Shown piece by piece: positions 3,826 through 56,538 of a DNA stretch of 64,000 nucleotides. How positions within the stretch are numbered: position 1 is the first letter of the stretch; each line of letters begins with the position of its first letter. A program made the position numbers and the translations under genes. Source of the stretch: a virus; IMG/VR virus record IMGVR_UViG_3300037502_002145, positions 32,001 through 96,000 of that record, one strand, 5' to 3'. The notes below the pieces were generated by a model, which ran no database searches, was not told where the DNA came from, and was given only the letters and a program-made list of their open reading frames with translations.

Positions 3826-5298
3826 TTATTTACGCACTTTAATTGCGCCATATTTTGTTTGTATAATTCCATCATCATTAAGTGAATTATCAACTAGGTC
3901 GGCAACTAAAGAATCATCGTTTTTAGTTTTCTTTGTAAAATTTGCGTTTAAATTTTTTTGGGTAAACAGAATTGCACATTTTGATTCAATAACTTCTAAA
4001 GGTAGATTTTCTTTGTCTTCCTTAAGTGCAACATAGTCTGTAACATCAGATAAATGTTCATCAAATTTTGCAAAACATTCATCTTTCTTTTGTTCAGTTT
4101 CTTTCTTTACTCTTTCTTCAGCCTCTTTAACGAAATCATCGTATTTTGGTTTGATTTCATCGTAATCTGTTTTAATAGTGGAATAATTTGTTTCTGCTGT
4201 TTCCTTTTCGCTAGAAATTGTTTCAATTTTTCCATCAGCAACAATACAAAAATCCTCTAATTCTTTTGCAAAAGAAAAAGCACCGTCAATTGATTGAGTG
4301 CCTTCTACGAAATTTGCATATTCAATTTTCTTTTTTACTCTTGTTGCAAAGTCAATTTCTGGTTTATCACCATTCATTGCGAATGTGAAACCGTAATAAT
4401 TATAATTATCTGCCCTATCAATACAAATTACTTCGTTGTCCTGAATATCCACGATGGAATATCTAATACGCATATCCCCCCAACGATCTCTATACTGTTC
4501 ATGCGCAGATAAAATACCGTCTAATTCACTGTACTGTTGCATAACAGTTAATGAAAAATCAGTATTTGCATTATCTGGTTTTGCCATTTGTGTACCTCCT
4601 TCATTATTTTGGGTTGCCTTTAAAAAATCTGTGTAAGTCTTTAATTTATTTGACAATTCACTCTGAACACCTTTAACAAAATCATTCATTGTAAATTGGA
4701 CTTCAATGGTTGAGTTATGCATTCCGGGTTCTTGATCAATACCTAAAATACATGCAGCTCTGAATGAAAATTTAGTAAAATGAAATATATTATTTTCATC
4801 TTCATATCCTTCAACGGATGGTGGATGTAACTCCATGCTATGAGATTTAACCATATCTCGGTTCATAATTTCTGAACTCTTGTCAAACATATTCCACATA
4901 ACACCATCTACTACTAAAAATGTCCTAGTAACTCCATCATCACAGAGTCTATCTTCATAATGAGCATTATTATCCTCTGAACTAAGTATTACACCGTATG
5001 CAGTACCAGCATATTTTCTTTCTTTCTCCCCGTCTTTTCGCACTATAATATATCTGTGGTCAGAAAAATCATCATCTTTAATAGAATTTTTTTCTATAAA
5101 TCCAACTATTGGTATATATTCTAGTGATCCAATAGCGTCATCTACAACACTTTGCTCAAACATACTTGAATTAAAGTTTTCGCCTAAGTGCATCATCCAT
5201 ATTCTTACTTTTGTGAATCTACCATCAGTAGTATCCATTTCATCGAGTTTTTGAAACATTACTGGGACTGAATATTTTCCATACTGAATTAATTCCAT
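3826..5298 (-). CDS. Prohead protease-scaffold protein (YonD-like)
   Basis: Probable start ATG 5298 after AAAGGTGG; HLGENFN, IPIVG, HSMEL and CILG motifs; coiled-coil acidic C-terminal half. Confidence 0.7.
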   Translation of the reverse strand: MELIQYGKYSVPVMFQKLDEMDTTDGRFTKVRIWMMHLGENFNSSMFEQSVVDDAIGSLEYIPIVGFIEKNSIKDDDFSDHRYIIVRKDGEKERKYAGTAYGVILSSEDNNAHYEDRLCDDGVTRTFLVVDGVMWNMFDKSSEIMNRDMVKSHSMELHPPSVEGYEDENNIFHFTKFSFRAACILGIDQEPGMHNSTIEVQFTMNDFVKGVQSELSNKLKTYTDFLKATQNNEGGTQMAKPDNANTDFSLTVMQQYSELDGILSAHEQYRDRWGDMRIRYSIVDIQDNEVICIDRADNYNYYGFTFAMNGDKPEIDFATRVKKKIEYANFVEGTQSIDGAFSFAKELEDFCIVADGKIETISSEKETAETNYSTIKTDYDEIKPKYDDFVKEAEERVKKETEQKKDECFAKFDEHLSDVTDYVALKEDKENLPLEVIESKCAILFTQKNLNANFTKKTKNDDSLVADLVDNSLNDDGIIQTKYGAIKVRK

Positions 5299-17365: not shown

Positions 17366-20281
17366 TTATATAGTTACCTCCTTCAATGTATAATTGTAAC
17401 CTAGATAGCTTAAATCTACTGTATCTCCAGTATTAGATTGAAATGGAAATAATACAGATGATTTATTTGTATTCTGCTTAATATTGTTGTATATTATTTT
17501 CCCATATGTAGACCACAACAAATCCTTATTACTAGAAGGCTTTTCTTTATAAAAGTAATCTACTAAACAGTTTACGATAATAATTTGATTACTACACACA
17601 TTCTTTAACCTATCGTAAAGGTTATCTGAATCAATTTTATATTCTTCGACTACATTTGATATGTCTTCAGCTTCATTTTCGTCGTCGCTTATTGATTGTT
17701 TGTCAAACTTTTTACTAACCATAAAGCTTTTTAATTCTTCTACGACTTTATCGTAATACTTCGCATATTCAAATGATTCATTTTTATACAATCTGTACAC
17801 TTCTTCATCTGTTTTAATTTTTGTGTGTTGAGATATATCAAAGTTAATCCCCTCAATATATTCGCATAATAAGTTCATAGAACTTTCACTATGTATTACA
17901 GGAGAGTGAGCATAAAAGTTATTTATAAATTCTTTTTGTATCTTAGTCTTTCTATTGAGATTTTTTAAGTCGCTAAATGGCATTTGAAATTTTTGTCTAC
18001 ATGTTATATCGTACTCTTCATAATATTTTTTATATTGTCTATTTGTGTCTTTATAAACATATCTAAAAAAATAAGGATATTTGTCTAGTAAAATGTTGTT
18101 ATACAATTGTTTTTTTCTTAATTTTCTACATTTGGTTAATTTTTTTGGATTCTTTGGTAATTTAATATAATTAACCCAAACCTTAGGGATACCCTTTACT
18201 GCCTTGCCTATTTTAGCCTTATCTATCTGAGCTGATTGAGCTTTACAGCATTGTTGAAGTCTGGACTTTAATAACTTATATTCAGTACTTTCAATACCAT
18301 ATTTTTTAATGATGTTTGGCAATAGAGCATATCCGTTACTTGATTTATTTGTTATAGACCCTATAATTGAACCAAATGAAAAAGTGTCTGATTCATATAA
18401 ATCTGCATCTGTAAATTTAATTTTCTTTGGTTTTGGAGCATCATATACGACTGGCAACTCATCTTTATAAACGTTATTCAATATACTTTTGTGAGATACT
18501 GTTGCTAAAATATCCATATCAAAATCACAGCCCGCGAAATTAACACATTCGTGACCAAAATAATTTAAAATAATTCCCAGTTCACAGTATTTATACCACT
18601 TGTTCACCTCATCGTCGTCTCTCAGGTTTAATATCACATGTTCAGACATATAGGTGAGAGGTGATCTCATTGCGTCTACTTGTTTTATATTTCTTTTGTT
18701 CCAATAATTAGAATAATATTCACCTTTTTTGAGTAAACCAGTTACTTCTAAGCCACAAACGTGTTGCATAAAGCCAAATGGATCAGATACAATAACTTGA
18801 AAATTTCCATCTACATAAATATCACCCTTACATGCGTTTTCAATTTTATGTCTAATCAAATCACGTATTTTTGAGCGTACATATTTATCACTTTTGATAT
18901 CATGATTAACAATTAAACTTTTAACTAAATAATTATCACTACTTGATAAAAAGTTGTTGATTTTATCGTTATCGTTGTTTACACCTAATAAAAATAGTAG
19001 CATGTAATAAACATTATCATAAGACACACCATTTATCCAGTCGACAAATTGACTTGCTAAATTCTCTACATCTTCTTTTGATAAATTTAATGTTTGTATA
19101 AACTGATAATTTAATTTCATCATATGCTTAGCTGCTTTTGGTGTATGAAGAGCGACCCCCCAATACAACTTATTCTTATGGCAATTATTAATGTATTCTT
19201 CCAGTGAATTGTAGCTATCCCATAATTTAAATTGTGATTCTGTAATTATAACTTCATAATCTCTTAAATCAGCTTTTATATAGTTACCATCATCACCTTT
19301 GTATATAGTGTCTACAATATAACTGCCATTATTAACTTCTTCGCAAAAATCATGAATAGGAAAAACACACAACATTCCTTTCATAAAACTTTGTCGTATA
19401 CAAAACTGAGAAGGGACATAGTCCAAACCTAAATCTTTAGCCCATATAGAAGCCTGTTTTGGAGATATTAAACCCATCCCATCAGTTCTATTCATTTTCA
19501 TATCTTTAATCTCTTTTTGTATTATGGTGTCATCAACATTCCAACCATTTTCAATTACGTAATTTGCTGTAAAGGTGTCAGTATTCTCAAAATCTTTAAC
19601 AACAATAAACTTAGGTTCACTAACAATCTTTGTCGCAGATCCGTACAAGCCAAAGTATGCATTAAATTTGCTTGGTGAAAATGATTTTTCTTTATTTCTG
19701 CCATTATCAAGTCTTTCTTTTACTAAATCAATTATTTCCGTATTGCAGAATATAACAGTAGATACTCTAGCTTGACTAGCAGAACAACTTAATCGTTTAT
19801 ATTCCTTGCCATTAATTATGAATCCGTTTTTATAGAGGTGGTCATATTGTTTTAGATTATCCATCACTACAACAACATAATCTTCAATAAACATTGTACG
19901 ATTAATTTTATCTTGAATTCTTTGAGCTTCATTGTTATAAACAGTTACGTCAAGGTACTTATTTTTCAATCTTTCAATTATCTTAGAATTGTTATTTACT
20001 TTTTTTATTTTGTTATTTATGATTTCTGTATATTTATTGTTTCTTTGTTGATATGTATTAGAATATTTATAATGATCACGAATTTTTATCAATAACTCTA
20101 TTTTTTTTCTGTCTACGCACTTATTTCTTATATCTCTTATAGTGCGTAGTATCTGATTATCAGAAAGTCCTATTATTTCTTTAAGATCTTTTGATTCATT
20201 AAATGTATTATTAATATTGTAGTCAAATTCTTTTAATCTACCTGAATGAAATTTACGCACATATAATGGTCTATTTGTCAT
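17366..20281 (-). CDS. YonO-like single-subunit DNA-dependent RNA polymerase (two-barrel, RdRP-related)
   Basis: TDGMGLIS, QFCIR..KGML, RSP, and GCDFDMD metal-binding motif; IDKAK; GGAGG RBS before ATG 20281. Confidence 0.85.
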   Translation of the reverse strand: MTNRPLYVRKFHSGRLKEFDYNINNTFNESKDLKEIIGLSDNQILRTIRDIRNKCVDRKKIELLIKIRDHYKYSNTYQQRNNKYTEIINNKIKKVNNNSKIIERLKNKYLDVTVYNNEAQRIQDKINRTMFIEDYVVVVMDNLKQYDHLYKNGFIINGKEYKRLSCSASQARVSTVIFCNTEIIDLVKERLDNGRNKEKSFSPSKFNAYFGLYGSATKIVSEPKFIVVKDFENTDTFTANYVIENGWNVDDTIIQKEIKDMKMNRTDGMGLISPKQASIWAKDLGLDYVPSQFCIRQSFMKGMLCVFPIHDFCEEVNNGSYIVDTIYKGDDGNYIKADLRDYEVIITESQFKLWDSYNSLEEYINNCHKNKLYWGVALHTPKAAKHMMKLNYQFIQTLNLSKEDVENLASQFVDWINGVSYDNVYYMLLFLLGVNNDNDKINNFLSSSDNYLVKSLIVNHDIKSDKYVRSKIRDLIRHKIENACKGDIYVDGNFQVIVSDPFGFMQHVCGLEVTGLLKKGEYYSNYWNKRNIKQVDAMRSPLTYMSEHVILNLRDDDEVNKWYKYCELGIILNYFGHECVNFAGCDFDMDILATVSHKSILNNVYKDELPVVYDAPKPKKIKFTDADLYESDTFSFGSIIGSITNKSSNGYALLPNIIKKYGIESTEYKLLKSRLQQCCKAQSAQIDKAKIGKAVKGIPKVWVNYIKLPKNPKKLTKCRKLRKKQLYNNILLDKYPYFFRYVYKDTNRQYKKYYEEYDITCRQKFQMPFSDLKNLNRKTKIQKEFINNFYAHSPVIHSESSMNLLCEYIEGINFDISQHTKIKTDEEVYRLYKNESFEYAKYYDKVVEELKSFMVSKKFDKQSISDDENEAEDISNVVEEYKIDSDNLYDRLKNVCSNQIIIVNCLVDYFYKEKPSSNKDLLWSTYGKIIYNNIKQNTNKSSVLFPFQSNTGDTVDLSYLGYNYTLKEVTI

Positions 20282-20371
20282 TAGATTTACCTCCAATTCT
20301 CCTTAAATATTATTTGTTTATTTAATGCCATTATCAAACCTCCAATTTCTTTGTTAGATATATTTAAAGTT

Positions 20372-31718: not shown

Positions 31719-32060
31719 ATGATTAAAGAAGAGTTAAAACAGAAAATAGAAGAACATAAACAGGAAAATATAAGATTATATAACATTTTCCAATATAGAT
31801 TACATGATGAAGAAATGCAAACTCTAATTAATCAATGGAGAGAAGGTAGCGCAAAATTAAAAGCATTAGATAATGAATTGAATCAACTGGAAATGAAAGA
31901 ACGTGACGAAAAACTAGCAAGCAAAGGTAATAAACAGGAAACAAAAACTTTTATAAATGGTTACGGAGAATCAACAAACAAATATATAACAAGTTCAACA
32001 TATGAAAGAGCAGAAAAGCGAAGACAAAAAGAAGTATTGTCTTTTATGGGTAATAGATAA
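31719..32060 (+). CDS. Coiled-coil hypothetical protein
   Basis: 113 aa with AAGGAG RBS. Confidence 0.55.
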   Translation: MIKEELKQKIEEHKQENIRLYNIFQYRLHDEEMQTLINQWREGSAKLKALDNELNQLEMKERDEKLASKGNKQETKTFINGYGESTNKYITSSTYERAEKRRQKEVLSFMGNR

Positions 32061-36676: not shown

Positions 36677-36943
36677 ATGGAAAGAAGAAAAGTGTTATTT
36701 ACTACTGGTATGACAGATGATAAACAGATAATTATTACAGATGCATCAAAAGAAGAAATTGAAAAGTGGTGTTATAGATATAATGAATCATTAGAAAATG
36801 GGAAAAGTATAGAACCATTTGACACTTTAAAAACTCAATACTATGTGAAAGAATTACATGATTCTGAAATTGATGATAATGAAAACGTAGACATTATTGG
36901 ATATGACGAAGTATACGATCTATTTGATTATTACAGTAAATAA
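36677..36943 (+). CDS. Hypothetical protein
   Basis: 88 aa flanked by junction palindromes at 36641 and 36940. Confidence 0.55.
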   Translation: MERRKVLFTTGMTDDKQIIITDASKEEIEKWCYRYNESLENGKSIEPFDTLKTQYYVKELHDSEIDDNENVDIIGYDEVYDLFDYYSK

Positions 36944-38615: not shown

Positions 38616-39836
38616 ATGAAAACCACAAGAGCAGAACAACATATTATCAAAAAGAACAATCCTTTATGGCAAGTAGTAGACATCATGTGTTTTAAATCTA
38701 AGAACCTATATAACTTTGCCAATTATATTATAAGGCAAGAATTTATCAACAATGGTAACTGGATACATTACAATTCACTTTTTGATTTATGTAAAGAAAG
38801 TGAACCATATAAAGATTTAGGTAGCAATGTTGGTCAGGCAACATTAAGATTGTTGGATAAAAACTGGAAATCATTCTTCAAAGCCATAAAAGATTGGAAA
38901 CAGTATCCAAGTAAGTATTTAGGTAGACCTAGATTACCAAAGTATAAACCTAAAGATGGTAGATTTATTTTAAGTATTGATAATAATAAGGTAATGCTGA
39001 AGGATGGCTATATATACTTTGCTTGGAAACCATTAAAAGTATTGAATAACCACTTTATTACTAAAATACCACAAGATTGTAAAGTATTTCAATGCAGATT
39101 TATACCAAGTGGATCAAATTATACAATGGAAATAGTATATGAGATTGAAGTATCTGAACAACCGGAACATTCAGAAAGAATTATAAGCATTGATTTAGGA
39201 GTTGATAACTTTGTAACTATTACAAATAACATTGGACTAAAACCATTTGTTATTAAAGGCGGAGTAATTAAGTCAGTAAATCAATATTATAATAAAGAAA
39301 AAGCAAGAATACAATCCGAATTGAAAAAGGTTAATAAAAAAGATTGGAGTAATAAGTTACAGAAGTTGACTGATAAACGTAATAACAAAATTAAGTATTT
39401 GATGCATGTTTATAGCAAAAATATTATTGATTACTGCTTAAAGAATGGGATTGATACTATTGTATGCGGTTACAACAAAGAGTGGAAACAAGAATCTGAA
39501 ATGACTAAGAAAACTAATCAAAAATTTGTAACCATACCATATGAAATATTTATAAGCATGTTAGATTATAAATCATTAGATAGTGGCAAGAAGTTTATTT
39601 TGAATGAGGAAGGCTATACGTCTGGAACATCATTTTTAGACAACGAAGAACCAATTAAGACTAACTACAATAAAAGTAGAAGAGTTCATAGAGGTTTATT
39701 TGTTAGCAACAATGGTATTAAAGTCAATGCTGATGTAAACGGAAGTTACCAGATAATGAAGAAAGTATTCCCAAACGTCTTTGACAATGGGATAGAGGGT
39801 GCAGGTTTACACCCAATGGTATTTAAAATTGCCTAA
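38616..39836 (+). CDS. tnpB: Solo TnpB-family RNA-guided nuclease (GYN..WKQ / EExYTS type, no Zn finger)
   Basis: SKNLYN, PRLPKY, SIDLG, CGYNKEWKQ, EEGYTS, NADVNG; no tnpA nearby. Confidence 0.85.
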   Translation: MKTTRAEQHIIKKNNPLWQVVDIMCFKSKNLYNFANYIIRQEFINNGNWIHYNSLFDLCKESEPYKDLGSNVGQATLRLLDKNWKSFFKAIKDWKQYPSKYLGRPRLPKYKPKDGRFILSIDNNKVMLKDGYIYFAWKPLKVLNNHFITKIPQDCKVFQCRFIPSGSNYTMEIVYEIEVSEQPEHSERIISIDLGVDNFVTITNNIGLKPFVIKGGVIKSVNQYYNKEKARIQSELKKVNKKDWSNKLQKLTDKRNNKIKYLMHVYSKNIIDYCLKNGIDTIVCGYNKEWKQESEMTKKTNQKFVTIPYEIFISMLDYKSLDSGKKFILNEEGYTSGTSFLDNEEPIKTNYNKSRRVHRGLFVSNNGIKVNADVNGSYQIMKKVFPNVFDNGIEGAGLHPMVFKIA

Positions 39837-43851: not shown

Positions 43852-44206
43852 AAGAAGAGTAGTTTTATTTGGAAAAATACACCATAAATGGTGTGTTATA
43901 ATACCTTTTTATAAAAATATAACATAATTAATATAAAACTTTAAAAAATGTATTGACACTTTTACCTTTAGGTGTTATATTTATATCACAAAGCAAACAA
44001 TAATATAAAACTTTAAAATTGTTTGCATAATACATCAAGGAAATGAATATAATACTATATAAAGGTGAAGGAGAGTGTCTGATAAATATGAATAATACAA
44101 TATGTTTATATTGAATACAAGTGAATTGATAAGGAGAAAAAATAATGAAAAATATTAAAGATGATTCTAGCTGACTAATAATAATGAAATGAGAGGATGA
44201 TTATAT

Positions 44207-51101: not shown

Positions 51102-51230
51102 GTAAAGGATATTAATATAAAACTTAAATTAAATAAAATAAAACCGTGTTTTTATCAAGAAAAAAAGAAGTTTTACAATGGAATAATCAAAAATATTAAG
51201 ATTGTTCCAAATCAATTATTAAATATAATT

Positions 51231-51430
51231 GCGGTATATTCCCATGCCGAAAGGTGAGAACTTAATACATAATGAAACGAAATTTAAATGTTACTCACCA
51301 AAGCTTGAAATATAGCAGGCTGCTTAATAGCAGACATTTCAGTCAACCTCTAATAATGTAAATTATATAGTAGGTCGACAATCCTAGTAATTAAAATATT
51401 ACTTAGATATTTATTGTTAATCTTAAACAG
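51231..51430 (+). ncRNA. Putative Cas12f tracrRNA (ends approximate)
   Basis: Follows a TTGTTC/TATAAT promoter; contains hairpins; anti-repeat TATTGTTAATCTTAAAC (51412-51428) pairs 16/17 with the 5' part of repeat 3. Confidence 0.7.
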
Positions 51431-51519
51431 AAAAAATTATCTTAAAATAAGTCAAAAGTAATAGGTCGACAATCGAGACTGTGAAACACATTATAAATTC
51501 TTGATATTTTGAGTATCGG

Positions 51520-51746
51520 GTTTAAGGATAAACAATGTTGTAATGTGAATCATTCCGAATTGGTATAACGTTAGACGAATACAACGTTTAAGATAAATAA
51601 TATTGTAATGTGAATGAGTCTGGGGCTGAAAACGCTAGCACAAGTAGTTTAGGTTTAAGATGAACAATATTGTAATGTGAATCTCTATTCAGTGCTAAGT
51701 ATACTAGAACTAATCCGTTTAATATAAATAATATCTTAAGTTGAAT
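51520..51746 (+). CRISPR. Mini CRISPR array: 4 repeats of about 30 bp, 3 spacers
   Basis: Repeats at 51520-51550, 51586-51615, 51653-51682 and degenerate 51717-51746; consensus GTTTAAGATAAACAATATTGTAATGTGAAT; spacers of 35, 37 and 34 bp. Confidence 0.9.
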
Positions 51747-51792
51747 AAATATAACAATAATATATATAACAAATAGTAAAAGGAGAATGTAA

Positions 51793-53073
51793 ATGTCAGA
51801 TAGATTAACCATATGTAGAAAAATAAAACTTTATCCAGTAGGAGATAAAGAAGAAATAAATAGGACATACAAATTTATAAGAGATGGTCAGTATTATCAA
51901 TATAAAGGTTTAAATTTATTAATGGGGCAATTAGTAAGTAAGTTCTATGAGTGTGGAATGGATCTAAAAAGTCAAATATTTAAAGATTGGCAAAATGTTA
52001 ATTTATGTAATACAAATCAGTTTTTAGATTTAGATTTTGCAAAAGGAGTTGACACTAAATCTTTAATAAAGCAAAAAGTAAAACAAGATTTTTCAACAGC
52101 TATAAAGAATGGATTAATGAAAGGTGAAAGAAATCCACCTACATACAAAAGAGATTTTCCATTATTGACAAGAGGAAGAGATTTGAAATTTTATCATGAA
52201 TATGAAGATTATCCAGAATTTTTAAGTAATTTACGTAAGAATAATGATGTTGTATTTATTAAGTGGGTCAATGGTATTGTATTTAAAGTGGTGTTAGGCA
52301 ATCCTAAAAAATCACAAGAGTTAAGAAGTGTGATTCAACAGATATTTGAAGAAAATTACAAAGTTCAAGGAAGTACGATAGAAGTGAATGATAAGGAAAT
52401 AATATTAAACTTATCAATATCAATACCAAAGAAAACAATAGAACTTAATGAAGATACATCTATTGGAGTAGACTTAGGAATCGCAGTACCGGCTGTGTGT
52501 GCCGTTAATAACAATGATTATAAAAAGTGTTTTATAGGCTCTAAAGATGACTTTTTAAGAGTTAGAACACAATTGCAAAATCAAAGGAAAAGACTTCAAA
52601 GATCACTAAAATCAACTTCTGGTGGACATGGAAGAAGTAAAAAATTATCTTCGTTGGATAATTTAAAAGATAGAGAATCAAATTTTGTTCAAACTTACAA
52701 TCATTATGTTAGTAAGCAAGTAGTGGATTTTGCAATTAAAAATAAAGCTAAATATATTAACATGGAAGATTTGAGTGGTTTTGATTCAAGTGAGTTTATA
52801 TTGAGGAATTGGAGCTATTATCAATTACAACAATATATAACATATAAAGCAGATAAATATGGAATAGAAGTTAGATACATTAATCCATATCATACATCTC
52901 AAATATGCTCTTGCTGTGGACACTGGGAAGAAGGACAGAGAATTAATCAGTCAACATTTGTTTGTAAGTCTTGTGGTTATTCTGTTAATGCAGATTTTAA
53001 TGCTGCAAGAAATATAGCAAAGTCAGATAAATATATTTCTAAGAAAGGAAGTGGTTCAGTTGCAAAAGAATAA
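51793..53073 (+). CDS. cas12f: Cas12f1 (type V-F) miniature effector, 426 aa
   Basis: RuvC GVDLG / MEDL / NADFN intact; YKRDFPLLTRGRDLKF, GGHGR, WSYYQLQ and CSCC..CKSC, as I recall for RhCas12f1/AsCas12f1; adjacent array and anti-repeat. Confidence 0.85.
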   Translation: MSDRLTICRKIKLYPVGDKEEINRTYKFIRDGQYYQYKGLNLLMGQLVSKFYECGMDLKSQIFKDWQNVNLCNTNQFLDLDFAKGVDTKSLIKQKVKQDFSTAIKNGLMKGERNPPTYKRDFPLLTRGRDLKFYHEYEDYPEFLSNLRKNNDVVFIKWVNGIVFKVVLGNPKKSQELRSVIQQIFEENYKVQGSTIEVNDKEIILNLSISIPKKTIELNEDTSIGVDLGIAVPAVCAVNNNDYKKCFIGSKDDFLRVRTQLQNQRKRLQRSLKSTSGGHGRSKKLSSLDNLKDRESNFVQTYNHYVSKQVVDFAIKNKAKYINMEDLSGFDSSEFILRNWSYYQLQQYITYKADKYGIEVRYINPYHTSQICSCCGHWEEGQRINQSTFVCKSCGYSVNADFNAARNIAKSDKYISKKGSGSVAKE

Positions 53074-53128: not shown

Positions 53129-53572
53129 ATGGATAATAATGACGAATATTTAAAGAAACTAAATAACATGATTAAAATGTCGGTAGAAGACGTAATGGCA
53201 TTAAACAATTTATTAACAGGTGTTAAGCAGGGTACAAATAAAGTTGATAACGTAGTTAGAATTAATGGTAACAACTTTACAGATTACGATAAGGCTATTC
53301 AGTACATAAACAACTTGAAAAACAAAGATTCATCCTATACTTGGTATGAATACAATGTACAGAAATTTGGTATAGGATATGCAATTCTTAAGTGGTGTCA
53401 ATCTAATGATAAGTATTACAATGAAAGAATGCTTAATTTAGCAATCAGTGAATACTCAGATAATATCAGTAAAAACGAAGGCGATTTTGCAAAACAAGTT
53501 TTAGAAATTTACAACAAAATTCTATCATTACCACAGTACAGAGGAAAAAGATTTGAAGGATTAACTAGATAA
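53129..53572 (+). CDS. Hypothetical protein downstream of cas12f
   Basis: 147 aa with AAGGAG RBS. Confidence 0.55.
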   Translation: MDNNDEYLKKLNNMIKMSVEDVMALNNLLTGVKQGTNKVDNVVRINGNNFTDYDKAIQYINNLKNKDSSYTWYEYNVQKFGIGYAILKWCQSNDKYYNERMLNLAISEYSDNISKNEGDFAKQVLEIYNKILSLPQYRGKRFEGLTR

Positions 53573-55350: not shown

Positions 55351-56538
55351 ATTTATAAAACAAAGATAATACCAGTTAAATGCGATAAAAATGATTATGA
55401 ATATCTAAAGGGGTTAAATAAATTATCTGCCGAAGTATGGAATTATTGTGTAAAAATTGATAAAGAATATTATGAGCTTAATGGTAAACATATGGATATG
55501 AAAACTATGCAATTTGCTGTAAAGGGATGCGTTAAACTACATGCAAAAGGAATAAATCATGTATACAGAAAATATTTAACGGCTAGGGATGCTATGTTTA
55601 GATCAATTAAAGCAAAACATAAAAACAGCAACAAAGTGAAATTGCCATATAAATGTAAGAGATATTTTAATACTGGATGGGATTACCAAAGCATAATTTG
55701 TGATTATAATAAAGGGTTGTTAAAATTGTCAAGACCTGTCGGGATAGCTACAGATGGCAAAAGACAAAGAGCATCGCCTGTAAAGTGTTATACAAAAGAG
55801 ATACCGCAAAATGTAGTTGAGATAGAGTTAACATATAAAAATAGATTAAACTTAGTCATAAAATATAAAGAGCCCGATATTACACGGAACATAGCTTCTG
55901 CTAATTCAGCCGCTATTGATTTAGGCGAAATACATAGTGTTGCTTCAATAGATAATAACGGCAATGCAATTATCATTACAGGCAGAAAAATAAGAAGCAT
56001 AAAAAGACTGAGAAATAAGGAGCAAGGAAAACTACGCTCCAAGATGTCAAAATGTAAAAAGTATAGTAAACAATATAAGAAATACAATCGTGCTTTATAT
56101 CATATTAAATACGAGAGTGAAAAGCAGATACTTGATTGTGTTCACAAGATAAGCAAATTATATCTTGATTACTGTATAGAAAATCAAATATCTACAGTGT
56201 ATTATGGTGATTTAGATAATTGCACTAGAAATAGTTCTGAAAGAATCGGAAAGTTTGTTGGTCAAAAGCTTAACGAGTGGAATTATGGTAAATTAACTTC
56301 ACAATTGCACAACAAACTAGAACAATACGGAATAAGACTGATTAAAATTAATGAAGCATATAGTTCTCAAACATGTCCGAATTGCCACAAAAGACACAAA
56401 CCAAAAGGGAGGAATTACATATGTGAATGTGGTTATAAACAGCACAGAGATTTAGTTGGAGCAATAAATATATTAAATTTTAATAGCACGACAAAAATAA
56501 AACTATATGAAACATTTAAGTATCTACGGATAGAGTAA
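55351..56538 (+). CDS. tnpB: Solo TnpB-family RNA-guided nuclease, ATT start
   Basis: AAGGAGGTG RBS then ATT TAT AAA ACA (xYKT..), in frame with ORF 55492; AIDLG, YYGDL, NEAYSSQTCPNC, HRDLVGAINI; no tnpA. Confidence 0.85.
   Translation: MYKTKIIPVKCDKNDYEYLKGLNKLSAEVWNYCVKIDKEYYELNGKHMDMKTMQFAVKGCVKLHAKGINHVYRKYLTARDAMFRSIKAKHKNSNKVKLPYKCKRYFNTGWDYQSIICDYNKGLLKLSRPVGIATDGKRQRASPVKCYTKEIPQNVVEIELTYKNRLNLVIKYKEPDITRNIASANSAAIDLGEIHSVASIDNNGNAIIITGRKIRSIKRLRNKEQGKLRSKMSKCKKYSKQYKKYNRALYHIKYESEKQILDCVHKISKLYLDYCIENQISTVYYGDLDNCTRNSSERIGKFVGQKLNEWNYGKLTSQLHNKLEQYGIRLIKINEAYSSQTCPNCHKRHKPKGRNYICECGYKQHRDLVGAINILNFNSTTKIKLYETFKYLRIE

Follow-up and report, generated by a model that had tools for sequence, protein, structure and literature searches.

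A probable type V-F1 CRISPR–Cas12f1 module with its own scaffold, leader, and mini-array on a large phage

The systems closest to the locus described here are those of CnCas12f1 and RhCas12f1 (9nzp; PMC13186708), both of type V-F1. In RhCas12f, residues D77, R117, and R119 contact the PAM (PMC13186708), and the published Cn and Rh single guides omit the 5′ half of the repeat (PMC10090079). In Clostridium novyi sensu lato, Cas14a/V-U loci have been described on a PICI and on the BoNT phage, with small arrays and beside or along with type I-B components (PMC8473940), and the co-occurrence of V-F1 with I-B, together with PAMs common to the two, has been reported (bioRxiv 10.1101/2024.04.09.587696). 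The literature already covers the clade, the fact that it lacks adaptation genes, and its carriage on mobile elements, and the family is common in gut phages; the locus leaves knowledge of the family unchanged.

Here, we examine positions 51138–53073 of a 64,000-nt stretch of viral DNA (the window, meaning the whole stretch analyzed), part of a virus record of 115,871 bp that CheckV estimates to be 81% complete. Our reading is that this phage-borne locus of less than 2 kb is probably a type V-F1 CRISPR–Cas12f1 module, and that its carrier is a large temperate-type Firmicutes phage related to SPbeta and c-st; for module and carrier taken jointly, we would give a probability of about 0.8. A YonO-like polymerase is common to the window's phage and phage c-st. 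On the + strand, the tracrRNA scaffold is followed by the CRISPR leader, the four repeats with three spacers, and cas12f1, and, judged from the sequence, every part appears intact and homologous to its counterpart in relatives. The features are as follows.

51138–51155, no strand: perfect palindrome ATAAAA-N6-TTTTAT, at the module's upstream edge
51224–51314, + strand: tracrRNA scaffold, located with a covariance model of relatives
51232–51237, paired with 51244–51249: scaffold stem 1
51253–51261, paired with 51290–51299: scaffold stem 2, with the family's bulged A and a 28-nt insertion in the loop
51320–51333, + strand: small hairpin, followed by AR-a (both within 51320–51342)
51334–51342, + strand: anti-repeat candidate AR-a, in the position and register of the anti-repeats of the Rh and Cn guides and of L096
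51342–51519, + strand: CRISPR leader of 178 nt between scaffold and array, with three boxes of GTCGAC type
51342–51348: leader box GTCAACC, at −178
51373–51380: leader box GGTCGACA, with TCGACA at −145
51395–51429, + strand: anti-repeat candidate AR-c, a near-full-length repeat complement with an internal loop, enclosing 51412–51428
51464–51471: leader box GGTCGACA, with TCGACA at −54
51487–51496, + strand: anti-repeat candidate AR-b, able to form 10 contiguous pairs with the 3′ tag of the repeat (within 51487–51513)
51508–51513, + strand: TTTGAG, 6 nt before repeat R1
51520–51746, + strand: CRISPR mini-array, four repeats and three spacers, with the degenerate repeat at the leader-distal end
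51520–51550: repeat R1, 31 nt
51586–51615: repeat R2, 30 nt
51653–51682: repeat R3, 30 nt
51717–51746: repeat R4, degenerate
51780–51785: AAGGAG, upstream of the cas12f1 start codon
51793–53073, + strand: cas12f1 gene, 426 aa, ATG at 51793, with RuvC residues D227, E325, and D401 and TNB zinc-ribbon residues C372, C375, C391, and C394

The upstream palindrome is a gene-junction signal used across the phage and is not specific to CRISPR; the window has six perfect copies where 0.34 would be expected. No related locus has a homolog of the 147-aa ORF downstream of the module or of five other small neighboring ORFs. Elsewhere, the window holds two other, distant TnpB genes. Neither the window nor the whole record gave a match to Cas1 or Cas2 in searches in which the positive controls did match.

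By sequence, the 426-aa protein, whose size is in the range of small V-F1 effectors (about 400–550 aa), belongs to the Clostridial clade of Cas12f1. Across a family alignment of 25 sequences, the three RuvC residues and the zinc-ribbon cysteines C372, C375, and C391 do not vary; C394 is present in the translation. Among PDB sequences, the protein matches 8hr5, which we take to be CnCas12f1, at E 2e-108, and RhCas12f (9nzp) at E 2.4e-95. The former identification fits the protein listed in PMC10090079. Other Cas12f sequences in the PDB match at E 1e-67 to 1e-28, ISDra2 TnpB only at E 1.2e-5, and the Pfam Cas12f1-like TNB model scores 85 bits. The family numbers more than 2000 proteins, and identity to relatives within it is 44–72%, the nearest homologs (P0002–P0020) being 67–72% identical; among the matches listed from a metagenome scan, none is closer than 64% over the full length. 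Residues D87, R127, and R129 align with the three RhCas12f PAM contacts, and a 5′ C-rich PAM is predicted because they are conserved. The initial annotation had proposed a tracrRNA-type, phage-borne Cas12f1 with a mini-array and neither cas1 nor cas2, its RuvC protein intact at D/E/D and starting 46 bp past the array; the translation, family alignment, protein matches, scaffold, and record search all agree with this. Its further suggestion of a new miniature editor stands insofar as the protein is a new member, and falls as regards novelty, since the family already includes the engineered CnCas12f1 and RhCas12f1.

What defines the tracrRNA is a conserved scaffold of two helices. A covariance model with 38 scaffolds of relatives as input and the window left out (model R1, not to be confused with repeat R1) matches 51224–51314 at 46.7 bits (E 2.6e-10); this is the sole scaffold in the window, the next match in the 64 kb having an E value of 0.05. 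All 15 of its pairs are kept as standard pairs, and the helices covary across relatives, with 86.8% of cells paired versus 69.5% when shuffled and 103 double changes versus 36. In 75 related loci, every one of 155 scaffold matches lies on the strand of the gene, as does the window's. The 206 nt that separate the scaffold's end from repeat R1 hold the hairpin and the boxed leader.

The assignment of the anti-repeat is ambiguous. The hairpin and AR-a were read by eye against published tracrRNAs and L096/L054, and AR-a, which is homologous in position, forms only a weak duplex with the repeat's 3′ 20 nt (−5.5 to −5.8 kcal/mol). The strongest candidate, AR-c, forms duplexes of −17.5 (R2) and −19.4 (R3) kcal/mol that take in 27 nt of the repeat, and one of −15.3 kcal/mol with R1, compared with −11.0 ± 1.9 and a best of −18.1 kcal/mol in 100 mononucleotide shuffles. 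AR-c sits inside the conserved leader and pairs mainly with the 5′ half of the repeat, which is dispensable; with the 3′ 20 nt alone, it reaches only −6.4 to −8.0 kcal/mol. It encloses the 17 nt at 51412–51428 that the initial annotation had named as the anti-repeat. That stretch is truly complementary to the repeat (88% to R2) and a tracrRNA scaffold does lie upstream of the array, but the part that defines the tracrRNA is this scaffold, which that annotation had not identified. The 17-nt stretch belongs to the leader, and its pairing is mostly to the 5′ half of the repeat. AR-b reaches −10.3 kcal/mol when paired with the last 20 nt of R1–R3 and, by sequence comparison (L034, L019), forms together with TTTGAG the counterpart of the 3′ terminus of fused cassettes in the closest phage relatives. 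Among 64 non-redundant cassettes, the tails pair with their own repeat at −12.2 ± 2.5 kcal/mol versus −8.0 ± 3.3 kcal/mol with mismatched repeats (p = 6e-20).

The array itself is as first annotated, with four repeats of about 30 bp, no two identical, and three spacers (35, 37, and 34 nt) whose sequences are exactly those given there. In the repeats that precede spacers (R1–R3), all differences are confined to the 5′ half and the last 13 nt are the same. There is no sign of recent acquisition, since all repeats differ and R1 carries a 1-nt insertion. The repeats belong to the same 29–30-nt class as those of RhCas12f1 and CnCas12f1 (PMC10090079 Suppl. Data 1) and L096, and class and orientation agree with those validated for Rh and Cn. 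R4 stops 46 bp short of the cas12f1 start codon, and the closest phage relatives likewise have 34–47 bp between their last repeat and the ATG. The relative whose repeat is most similar (L096) lies in a Clostridium MAG, and its contig also encodes a complete type I-B operon. As for the comparison with host type I-B repeats suggested earlier, the exact repeat is absent from GTDB genomes and IMG/VR, and no host array carrying it was found there. The nearest arrays by repeat are orphan Enterococcus arrays beside housekeeping genes, with only the 3′ 12 nt in common, in genomes whose only Cas1 sits in a type II-A locus and which have no type I-B cas1.

The leader points to a possible route of spacer acquisition. 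The box GGTCGACA has only two copies in the 116-kb record. A Lachnospiraceae Cas12f locus (L090) has the same three boxes at −175/−143/−54, and the orphan Enterococcus arrays L209 and L212 have them at about −173/−139/−53; in L208, they occur at −173 and −53 only, and in L213, paired boxes were seen by pattern scan. The box-bearing Enterococcus loci contain neither a scaffold nor a Cas12f homolog. Use of host Cas1–Cas2 appears more plausible because the leader is conserved and a type I-B operon is present in the genome of L096. We tentatively raise the idea, which we think somewhat unlikely as it stands, that the three-box leader is a portable docking module for the host's spacer integrase, and that the phage combined a fused-cassette-type scaffold with a leader and array captured from a chromosome. 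Under this reading, TTTGAG and the matching anti-repeat before R1 would be the surviving remnant of a cassette. If so, the phage nuclease would keep a memory written by its host. We found no description of the conserved three-box leader in the literature compared on Cas12f1 and mini-arrays, and it offers a concrete handle on how V-F1 arrays may be loaded in trans.

Searches for targets gave no protospacer. None was found for any spacer in the virus record, which extends to the whole record what had been noted for the window. The suggested search of the spacers against phage, plasmid, and host databases likewise yielded no target: blastn against 50,697 phage records and 72,556 plasmids returned only two matches at E 0.2, both to C. 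difficile plasmids; searches of IMG/VR with a 20-nt seed from each of the three spacers found none; and in 45 full genomes of related phages, the best matches span repeat–spacer borders and were judged to be chance. In the search of GTDB genomes for protospacers, which used the S2 seed, one match (20/37 nt, in a GC-rich ABC-ATPase gene) was rejected as chance, with about one random match expected and no C-rich flank. With no target in any collection searched, the active inter-phage or anti-host weapon of the initial annotation stays conjectural. Separately, a spacer of L027 resembles window positions 31976–31999 (24 nt, one mismatch), and shuffled arrays equaled this score in 3 of 15 runs, so that we do not take it as evidence. 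A promoter scan returned 20 sites versus 19.9 in shuffles, which is chance level, and a terminator scan returned none. The single promoter for tracrRNA, array, and gene suggested in the initial annotation is thus conjectural, as is its proposal that crRNA processing could control cas12f mRNA.

Taken as a working type V-F1 module, the locus would operate as follows. The scaffold RNA would use an anti-repeat to pair with the repeats' invariant 3′ tag, and a Cas12f1 dimer would load the resulting tracrRNA:crRNA pair and cut double-stranded DNA that matches approximately the first 20 nt of a spacer beside the predicted 5′ C-rich PAM. New spacers, if still gained, would be inserted in trans by a host integrase docking on the conserved leader, probably a type I-B Cas1–Cas2–Cas4. 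The likely use would be against rival mobile elements in the same host.

Could the locus instead be a decaying relic, with a nuclease that is perhaps still expressed, an array that no longer gains spacers, and guides without live targets? The differences among all four repeats, the insertion in R1, the lack of a target in any collection searched, and the lack of adaptation genes in the record are all in line with such decay. We nevertheless consider it unlikely, as the gene is full length and retains all the invariant residues, the scaffold keeps its full set of standard pairs, the functional 3′ tag is the same in R1–R3, the leader boxes are intact, and an absent target is what a metagenomic phage would lead one to expect. 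More doubtful still is the proposal that the mini-array mainly serves a host type I-B Cascade, in superinfection exclusion or cas regulation like other viral mini-arrays without cas genes, so that its adjacency to cas12f1 is meaningless or both effectors use it. Repeats of 30 nt with spacers of 34–37 nt have type I-B geometry, the leader is common to arrays without Cas12f, and mini-arrays of type I-B have been documented in viruses, Clostridium phage c-st among them (bioRxiv 10.1101/2023.03.03.530964). Yet the validated Cn and Rh Cas12f1 guides have the same repeat class, a cognate scaffold lies upstream on the same strand, and the spacing from array to ATG is kept in relatives; in addition, the GTDB genomes yielded no host array with this repeat, and the Enterococcus genomes with the nearest repeat are those without a type I-B cas1.

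A TnpB-type nuclease for homing or transposon maintenance, guided by an omega-RNA and with repeats unrelated to it, is disfavored and in our view highly improbable. The general guided_TnpB model of NCBIfam does score 196 bits, and the two distant TnpB genes could be cited in its favor, but the IS200_TnpB model reaches 64 bits against a cut-off of 425 and the nearest solved relatives are all CRISPR Cas12f1. Moreover, the gap after the stop codon is 55 bp, no scaffold match falls downstream of the gene, and the nine neighboring ORFs scanned include no transposase. The initial annotation had named a protein grouping with IS-borne TnpB and using a 3′ omega-RNA as the outcome that would speak against it; we find neither the one nor the other.

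Read as a type V-F1 module, the locus adds an apparently intact Cas12f1 with native guide parts to the CnCas12f1/RhCas12f1 clade, and one more phage that carries a CRISPR effector and appears to leave spacer acquisition to its host. It has in common with CnCas12f1 and RhCas12f1 the RuvC and zinc-ribbon residues of the family, the repeat class, whose 3′ tag follows the pattern ATGT-R-AAT, tracrRNA stems 1 and 2, the absence of adaptation genes, and, with RhCas12f, the PAM-contact residues. In contrast to both, about half of the residues differ, the guide module lies upstream rather than downstream of the gene, stem 2 has its insertion, and the canonical stem-3 loop is missing. Pairing by the anti-repeat in the homologous position is weak here, the spacers number only three, and the element is a phage.

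The closest among the loci compared are the fused scaffold-plus-mini-array cassettes of gut phages (IMG/VR L010–L089), whose proteins are 62–66% identical and which have the same scaffold, an upstream module with a comparable distance from last repeat to ATG (34–47 bp), and a TTTGAG-type junction before the first repeat. These cassettes number 1–5 per locus, and their 36-nt repeats, with spacers of about 30 nt, adjoin the scaffold without a gap, whereas here there is one module with 30-nt repeats and longer spacers. With its 206-nt gap, its 30-nt repeats, and only a TTTGAG remnant 6 nt before R1, the locus falls outside the fused tracrRNA–mini-array cassette class. The C. novyi Cas14a/V-U loci (PMC8473940) are alike in combining a Cas12f1-type gene with a small array on a mobile element, but the element is a different one, and no type I-B remnants lie beside cas12f1 here. 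Finally, Cas-less viral mini-arrays (bioRxiv 10.1101/2023.03.03.530964) resemble this one in being short, in their degenerate distal repeat, and in their host-CRISPR-like repeats, whereas the present array is accompanied by an effector gene and a tracrRNA scaffold of its own, as well as by a full leader.

The 426-aa protein encoded downstream of the array at 51793-53073 (+) is closest to Cas12f1 effectors. Of all solved structures, the 497-aa chain of 8hr5 (E 2e-108), which we take to be CnCas12f1, and RhCas12f 9nzp (2.4e-95) match it best; Al3Cas12f, AsCas12f, OsCas12f and Un1Cas12f rank lower, and ISDra2 TnpB reaches only 1.2e-5. The 8hr5 sequence agrees with the CnCas12f1 sequence printed in PMC10090079. 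The HMM comparison of Cas12f1 with TnpB proposed in the initial annotation favors Cas12f1, with a Cas12f1-like TNB domain present (Pfam) and a score far under the cut-off of the NCBIfam IS200 TnpB model. Database matches at E <= 1e-20 number more than 2000 (top identity 72%), and in a 25-member alignment D227, E325 and D401, the RuvC triad described earlier as intact, are unvarying, as are C372, C375 and C391. Because D87, R127 and R129 line up with D77, R117 and R119, through which RhCas12f reads its C-rich PAM (PMC13186708), a C-rich 5' PAM is a reasonable prediction for this protein. Two TnpB-family genes with OrfB_IS605 and TNB domains also lie in the window (38616-39836, 406 aa; 55492-56538, 348 aa). 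They share only 23-27% identity with the Cas12f1, no transposase was found among their scanned neighbor ORFs, and they are best treated as matters separate from it. An ORF of 147 aa (53129-53572) immediately 3' of cas12f1 matched nothing in Pfam or PHROG, and none of the related loci encodes a homolog. The elements upstream of the gene are as follows.

51138, perfect palindrome, upstream edge of the CRISPR module
51224-51314 (+), tracrRNA scaffold
51334-51342, AR-a, candidate anti-repeat
51395-51429, AR-c, candidate anti-repeat
51487-51496, AR-b, candidate anti-repeat
51520-51746 (+), repeats R1-R4 (31, 30, 30, 30 nt) with spacers of 35, 37 and 34 nt
51780-51785, Shine-Dalgarno sequence

All that the initial annotation describes was found where it places it, with four repeats of about 30 bp, three spacers and, after the degenerate last repeat R4, a gap of 46 bp to the ATG of the 426-aa ORF. 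It is also true that all four repeats differ; nevertheless, the differences among R1-R3 are confined to the first 18 nt, and the last 13 nt, which form the crRNA tag in the Cas12f1 family, are identical. A type I-B array was suspected first, given the unit of a 30-nt repeat and a spacer of about 36 nt, but this was overturned by the validated RhCas12f1 and CnCas12f1 repeats (29-30 nt, GTT start, ATGT-R-AAT-type end tag; PMC10090079 Supplementary Data 1), which belong to the same class. Of the loci compared, the closest repeat belongs to L096, a Clostridium MAG whose Cas12f is 45% identical and whose long array lies downstream. Since the validated repeats share this class and the L096 repeat is nearest, the array is a normal V-F1 array in sense orientation. 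The contig of L096 also bears a full type I-B operon (Cas1b, Cas2, Cas4) and a 23-repeat array, whose repeat is similar to the V-F1 repeat in length and period, but not identical, in line with the published finding that V-F1 and type I-B co-occur (bioRxiv 10.1101/2024.04.09.587696).

Three boxes lie in the 178 nt upstream of R1, GTCAACC at -178 and TCGACA at -145 and -54, and the box sequence GGTCGACA has no occurrence elsewhere in the 116-kb record. The same three boxes stand at -175, -143 and -54 in a Lachnospiraceae MAG (L090), whose Cas12f is 57% identical and whose repeat is different. They recur in Enterococcus at orphan arrays of 30-nt repeats lying between housekeeping genes: L209 and L212 have all three at about -173, -139 and -53, in L208 (array at 3852-4750) only those at -173 and -53 are seen, and L213 has the paired boxes. 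The final 12 nt of these four Enterococcus repeats are the same as in the window, and the sequence directly after the first box is also alike. No scaffold was found at the box-bearing Enterococcus loci and no Cas12f homolog in their genomes, where Cas1 occurs only in a type II-A locus or is absent. As the boxes are found where scaffold and Cas12f are not, they belong to the leader of the array rather than to the tracrRNA. They also suggest that the phage array still has what it needs to be expressed and to receive spacers from another's integrase.

The tracrRNA was sought through relatives (80 IMG/VR, 36 GTDB and at least 80 metagenome contigs), which have in common a two-helix element adjoining their arrays. 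In an alignment of 38 non-redundant copies, from which the window was left out, covariation supports both helices: paired cells make up 86.8%, compared with 69.5% after shuffling and about 30-46% with slid partners, and there are 103 double changes versus 36. The resulting model has a single strong match in the 64-kb window, the scaffold (46.7 bits, E 2.6e-10), with 15/15 pairs standard and a 28-nt insertion in the stem-2 loop; the region 51224-51440 folds far more stably than shuffles (z = -4.4). All 155 scaffold copies in 75 related loci (1-5 per locus) lie on the gene's strand. For the tail that follows stem 2, pairing with its own first repeat averages -12.2 kcal/mol over 64 non-redundant cassettes, versus -8.0 with the repeats of others (Mann-Whitney p = 6e-20, inflated by kinship of the sequences). 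Evidence from the whole family thus ties the scaffold to the array.

Which segment pairs with the repeat can be weighed among three candidates. The published Cn and Rh single guides retain only the final 12-14 nt of the repeat (PMC10090079), so a functional anti-repeat should pair with the 3' tag. AR-c, which holds the 17-nt anti-repeat of the initial annotation (51412-51428), pairs most strongly overall (-17.5 to -19.4 versus -11.0 +/- 1.9 kcal/mol in shuffles), and the complementarity claimed for it stands. However, most of this pairing involves the 5' half of the repeat, AR-c reaching only -6.4 to -8.0 kcal/mol with the 3' 20 nt, and, the boxes being leader, it sits within a leader. AR-a, 3' of a small hairpin, has the position and register seen in the Rh/Cn guides and L096, but is weak (-5.8 kcal/mol). 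AR-b pairs with the tag over ten contiguous positions (-10.3 kcal/mol) and is followed by TTTGAG, 6 nt upstream of R1, the same layout as at the 3' end of the nearest phage relatives' fused cassettes, in which the scaffold runs via TTTGAG directly into its own mini-array.

No spacer target was found in the record itself, phage and plasmid collections, IMG/VR (20-nt seeds), 45 related phage genomes or GTDB (S2 seed only). A match of a relative's (L027) spacer to the window was rejected, as it fails the shuffle control. Matches pointing to rival elements are reported for C. novyi elements (PMC8473940), and by analogy with the Cas12f1 family we infer that the window locus may likewise be a weapon against such elements.

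The source IMG/VR record, of which the window covers bases 32001-96000, is linear, 115,871 bp long, 30% G+C and 81% complete by CheckV, its phage identity marked by PHROG matches, a DnaB-like helicase, an anti-repressor and a Sak annealing protein. It also encodes a YonO-like single-subunit RNA polymerase (976 aa, window 17366-20296) with kin in Bacillus phage BUCT082, SPbeta-like phages and Clostridium phage c-st. Perfect ATAAAA-N6-TTTTAT palindromes at 36940, 37812, 49164, 49648, 51138 and 54319 (6 seen versus 0.34 expected) are probably a phage-wide transcription signal. Two points bear on the putative shared promoter of the initial annotation, the palindrome at 51138 and the gap between last repeat and ATG, conserved at 34-47 bp in relatives; both are consistent with read-through, without proving it. 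Elsewhere, 43917-43944 (minus strand; second copy near 44000) agrees with an L058-type repeat at 21/23 leading nt and overlaps a repeated AATATAAAAC motif beside a promoter-like site; it could be an operator with a chance likeness to the repeat, or a solitary repeat unit.

This lineage of phage Cas12f loci is common, being present on at least 80 IMG/VR contigs. The gut-phage genes (IMG/VR L010-L089, metagenomes L128-L207) are flanked by 1-5 fused cassettes, in each of which the anti-repeat co-varies with its own repeat. One locus of a related phage (L034, 2300-2450) has, just upstream of the Cas12f cassette, a separate small array whose 32-nt repeats end in ATTGAAAT, resembling a type I handle. 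The clade, its tracrRNA, its absence of adaptation genes and its type I-B link are already published (PMC13186708; PMC10090079; bioRxiv 10.1101/2024.04.09.587696), as is its occurrence on phages and islands of clostridia (PMC8473940); the conserved three-box leader is the sole element of the locus for which we found no published description. Unlike its fused-cassette relatives, the window locus follows the classical split form, upstream of the gene, and has a full leader and repeats of the type I-B class.
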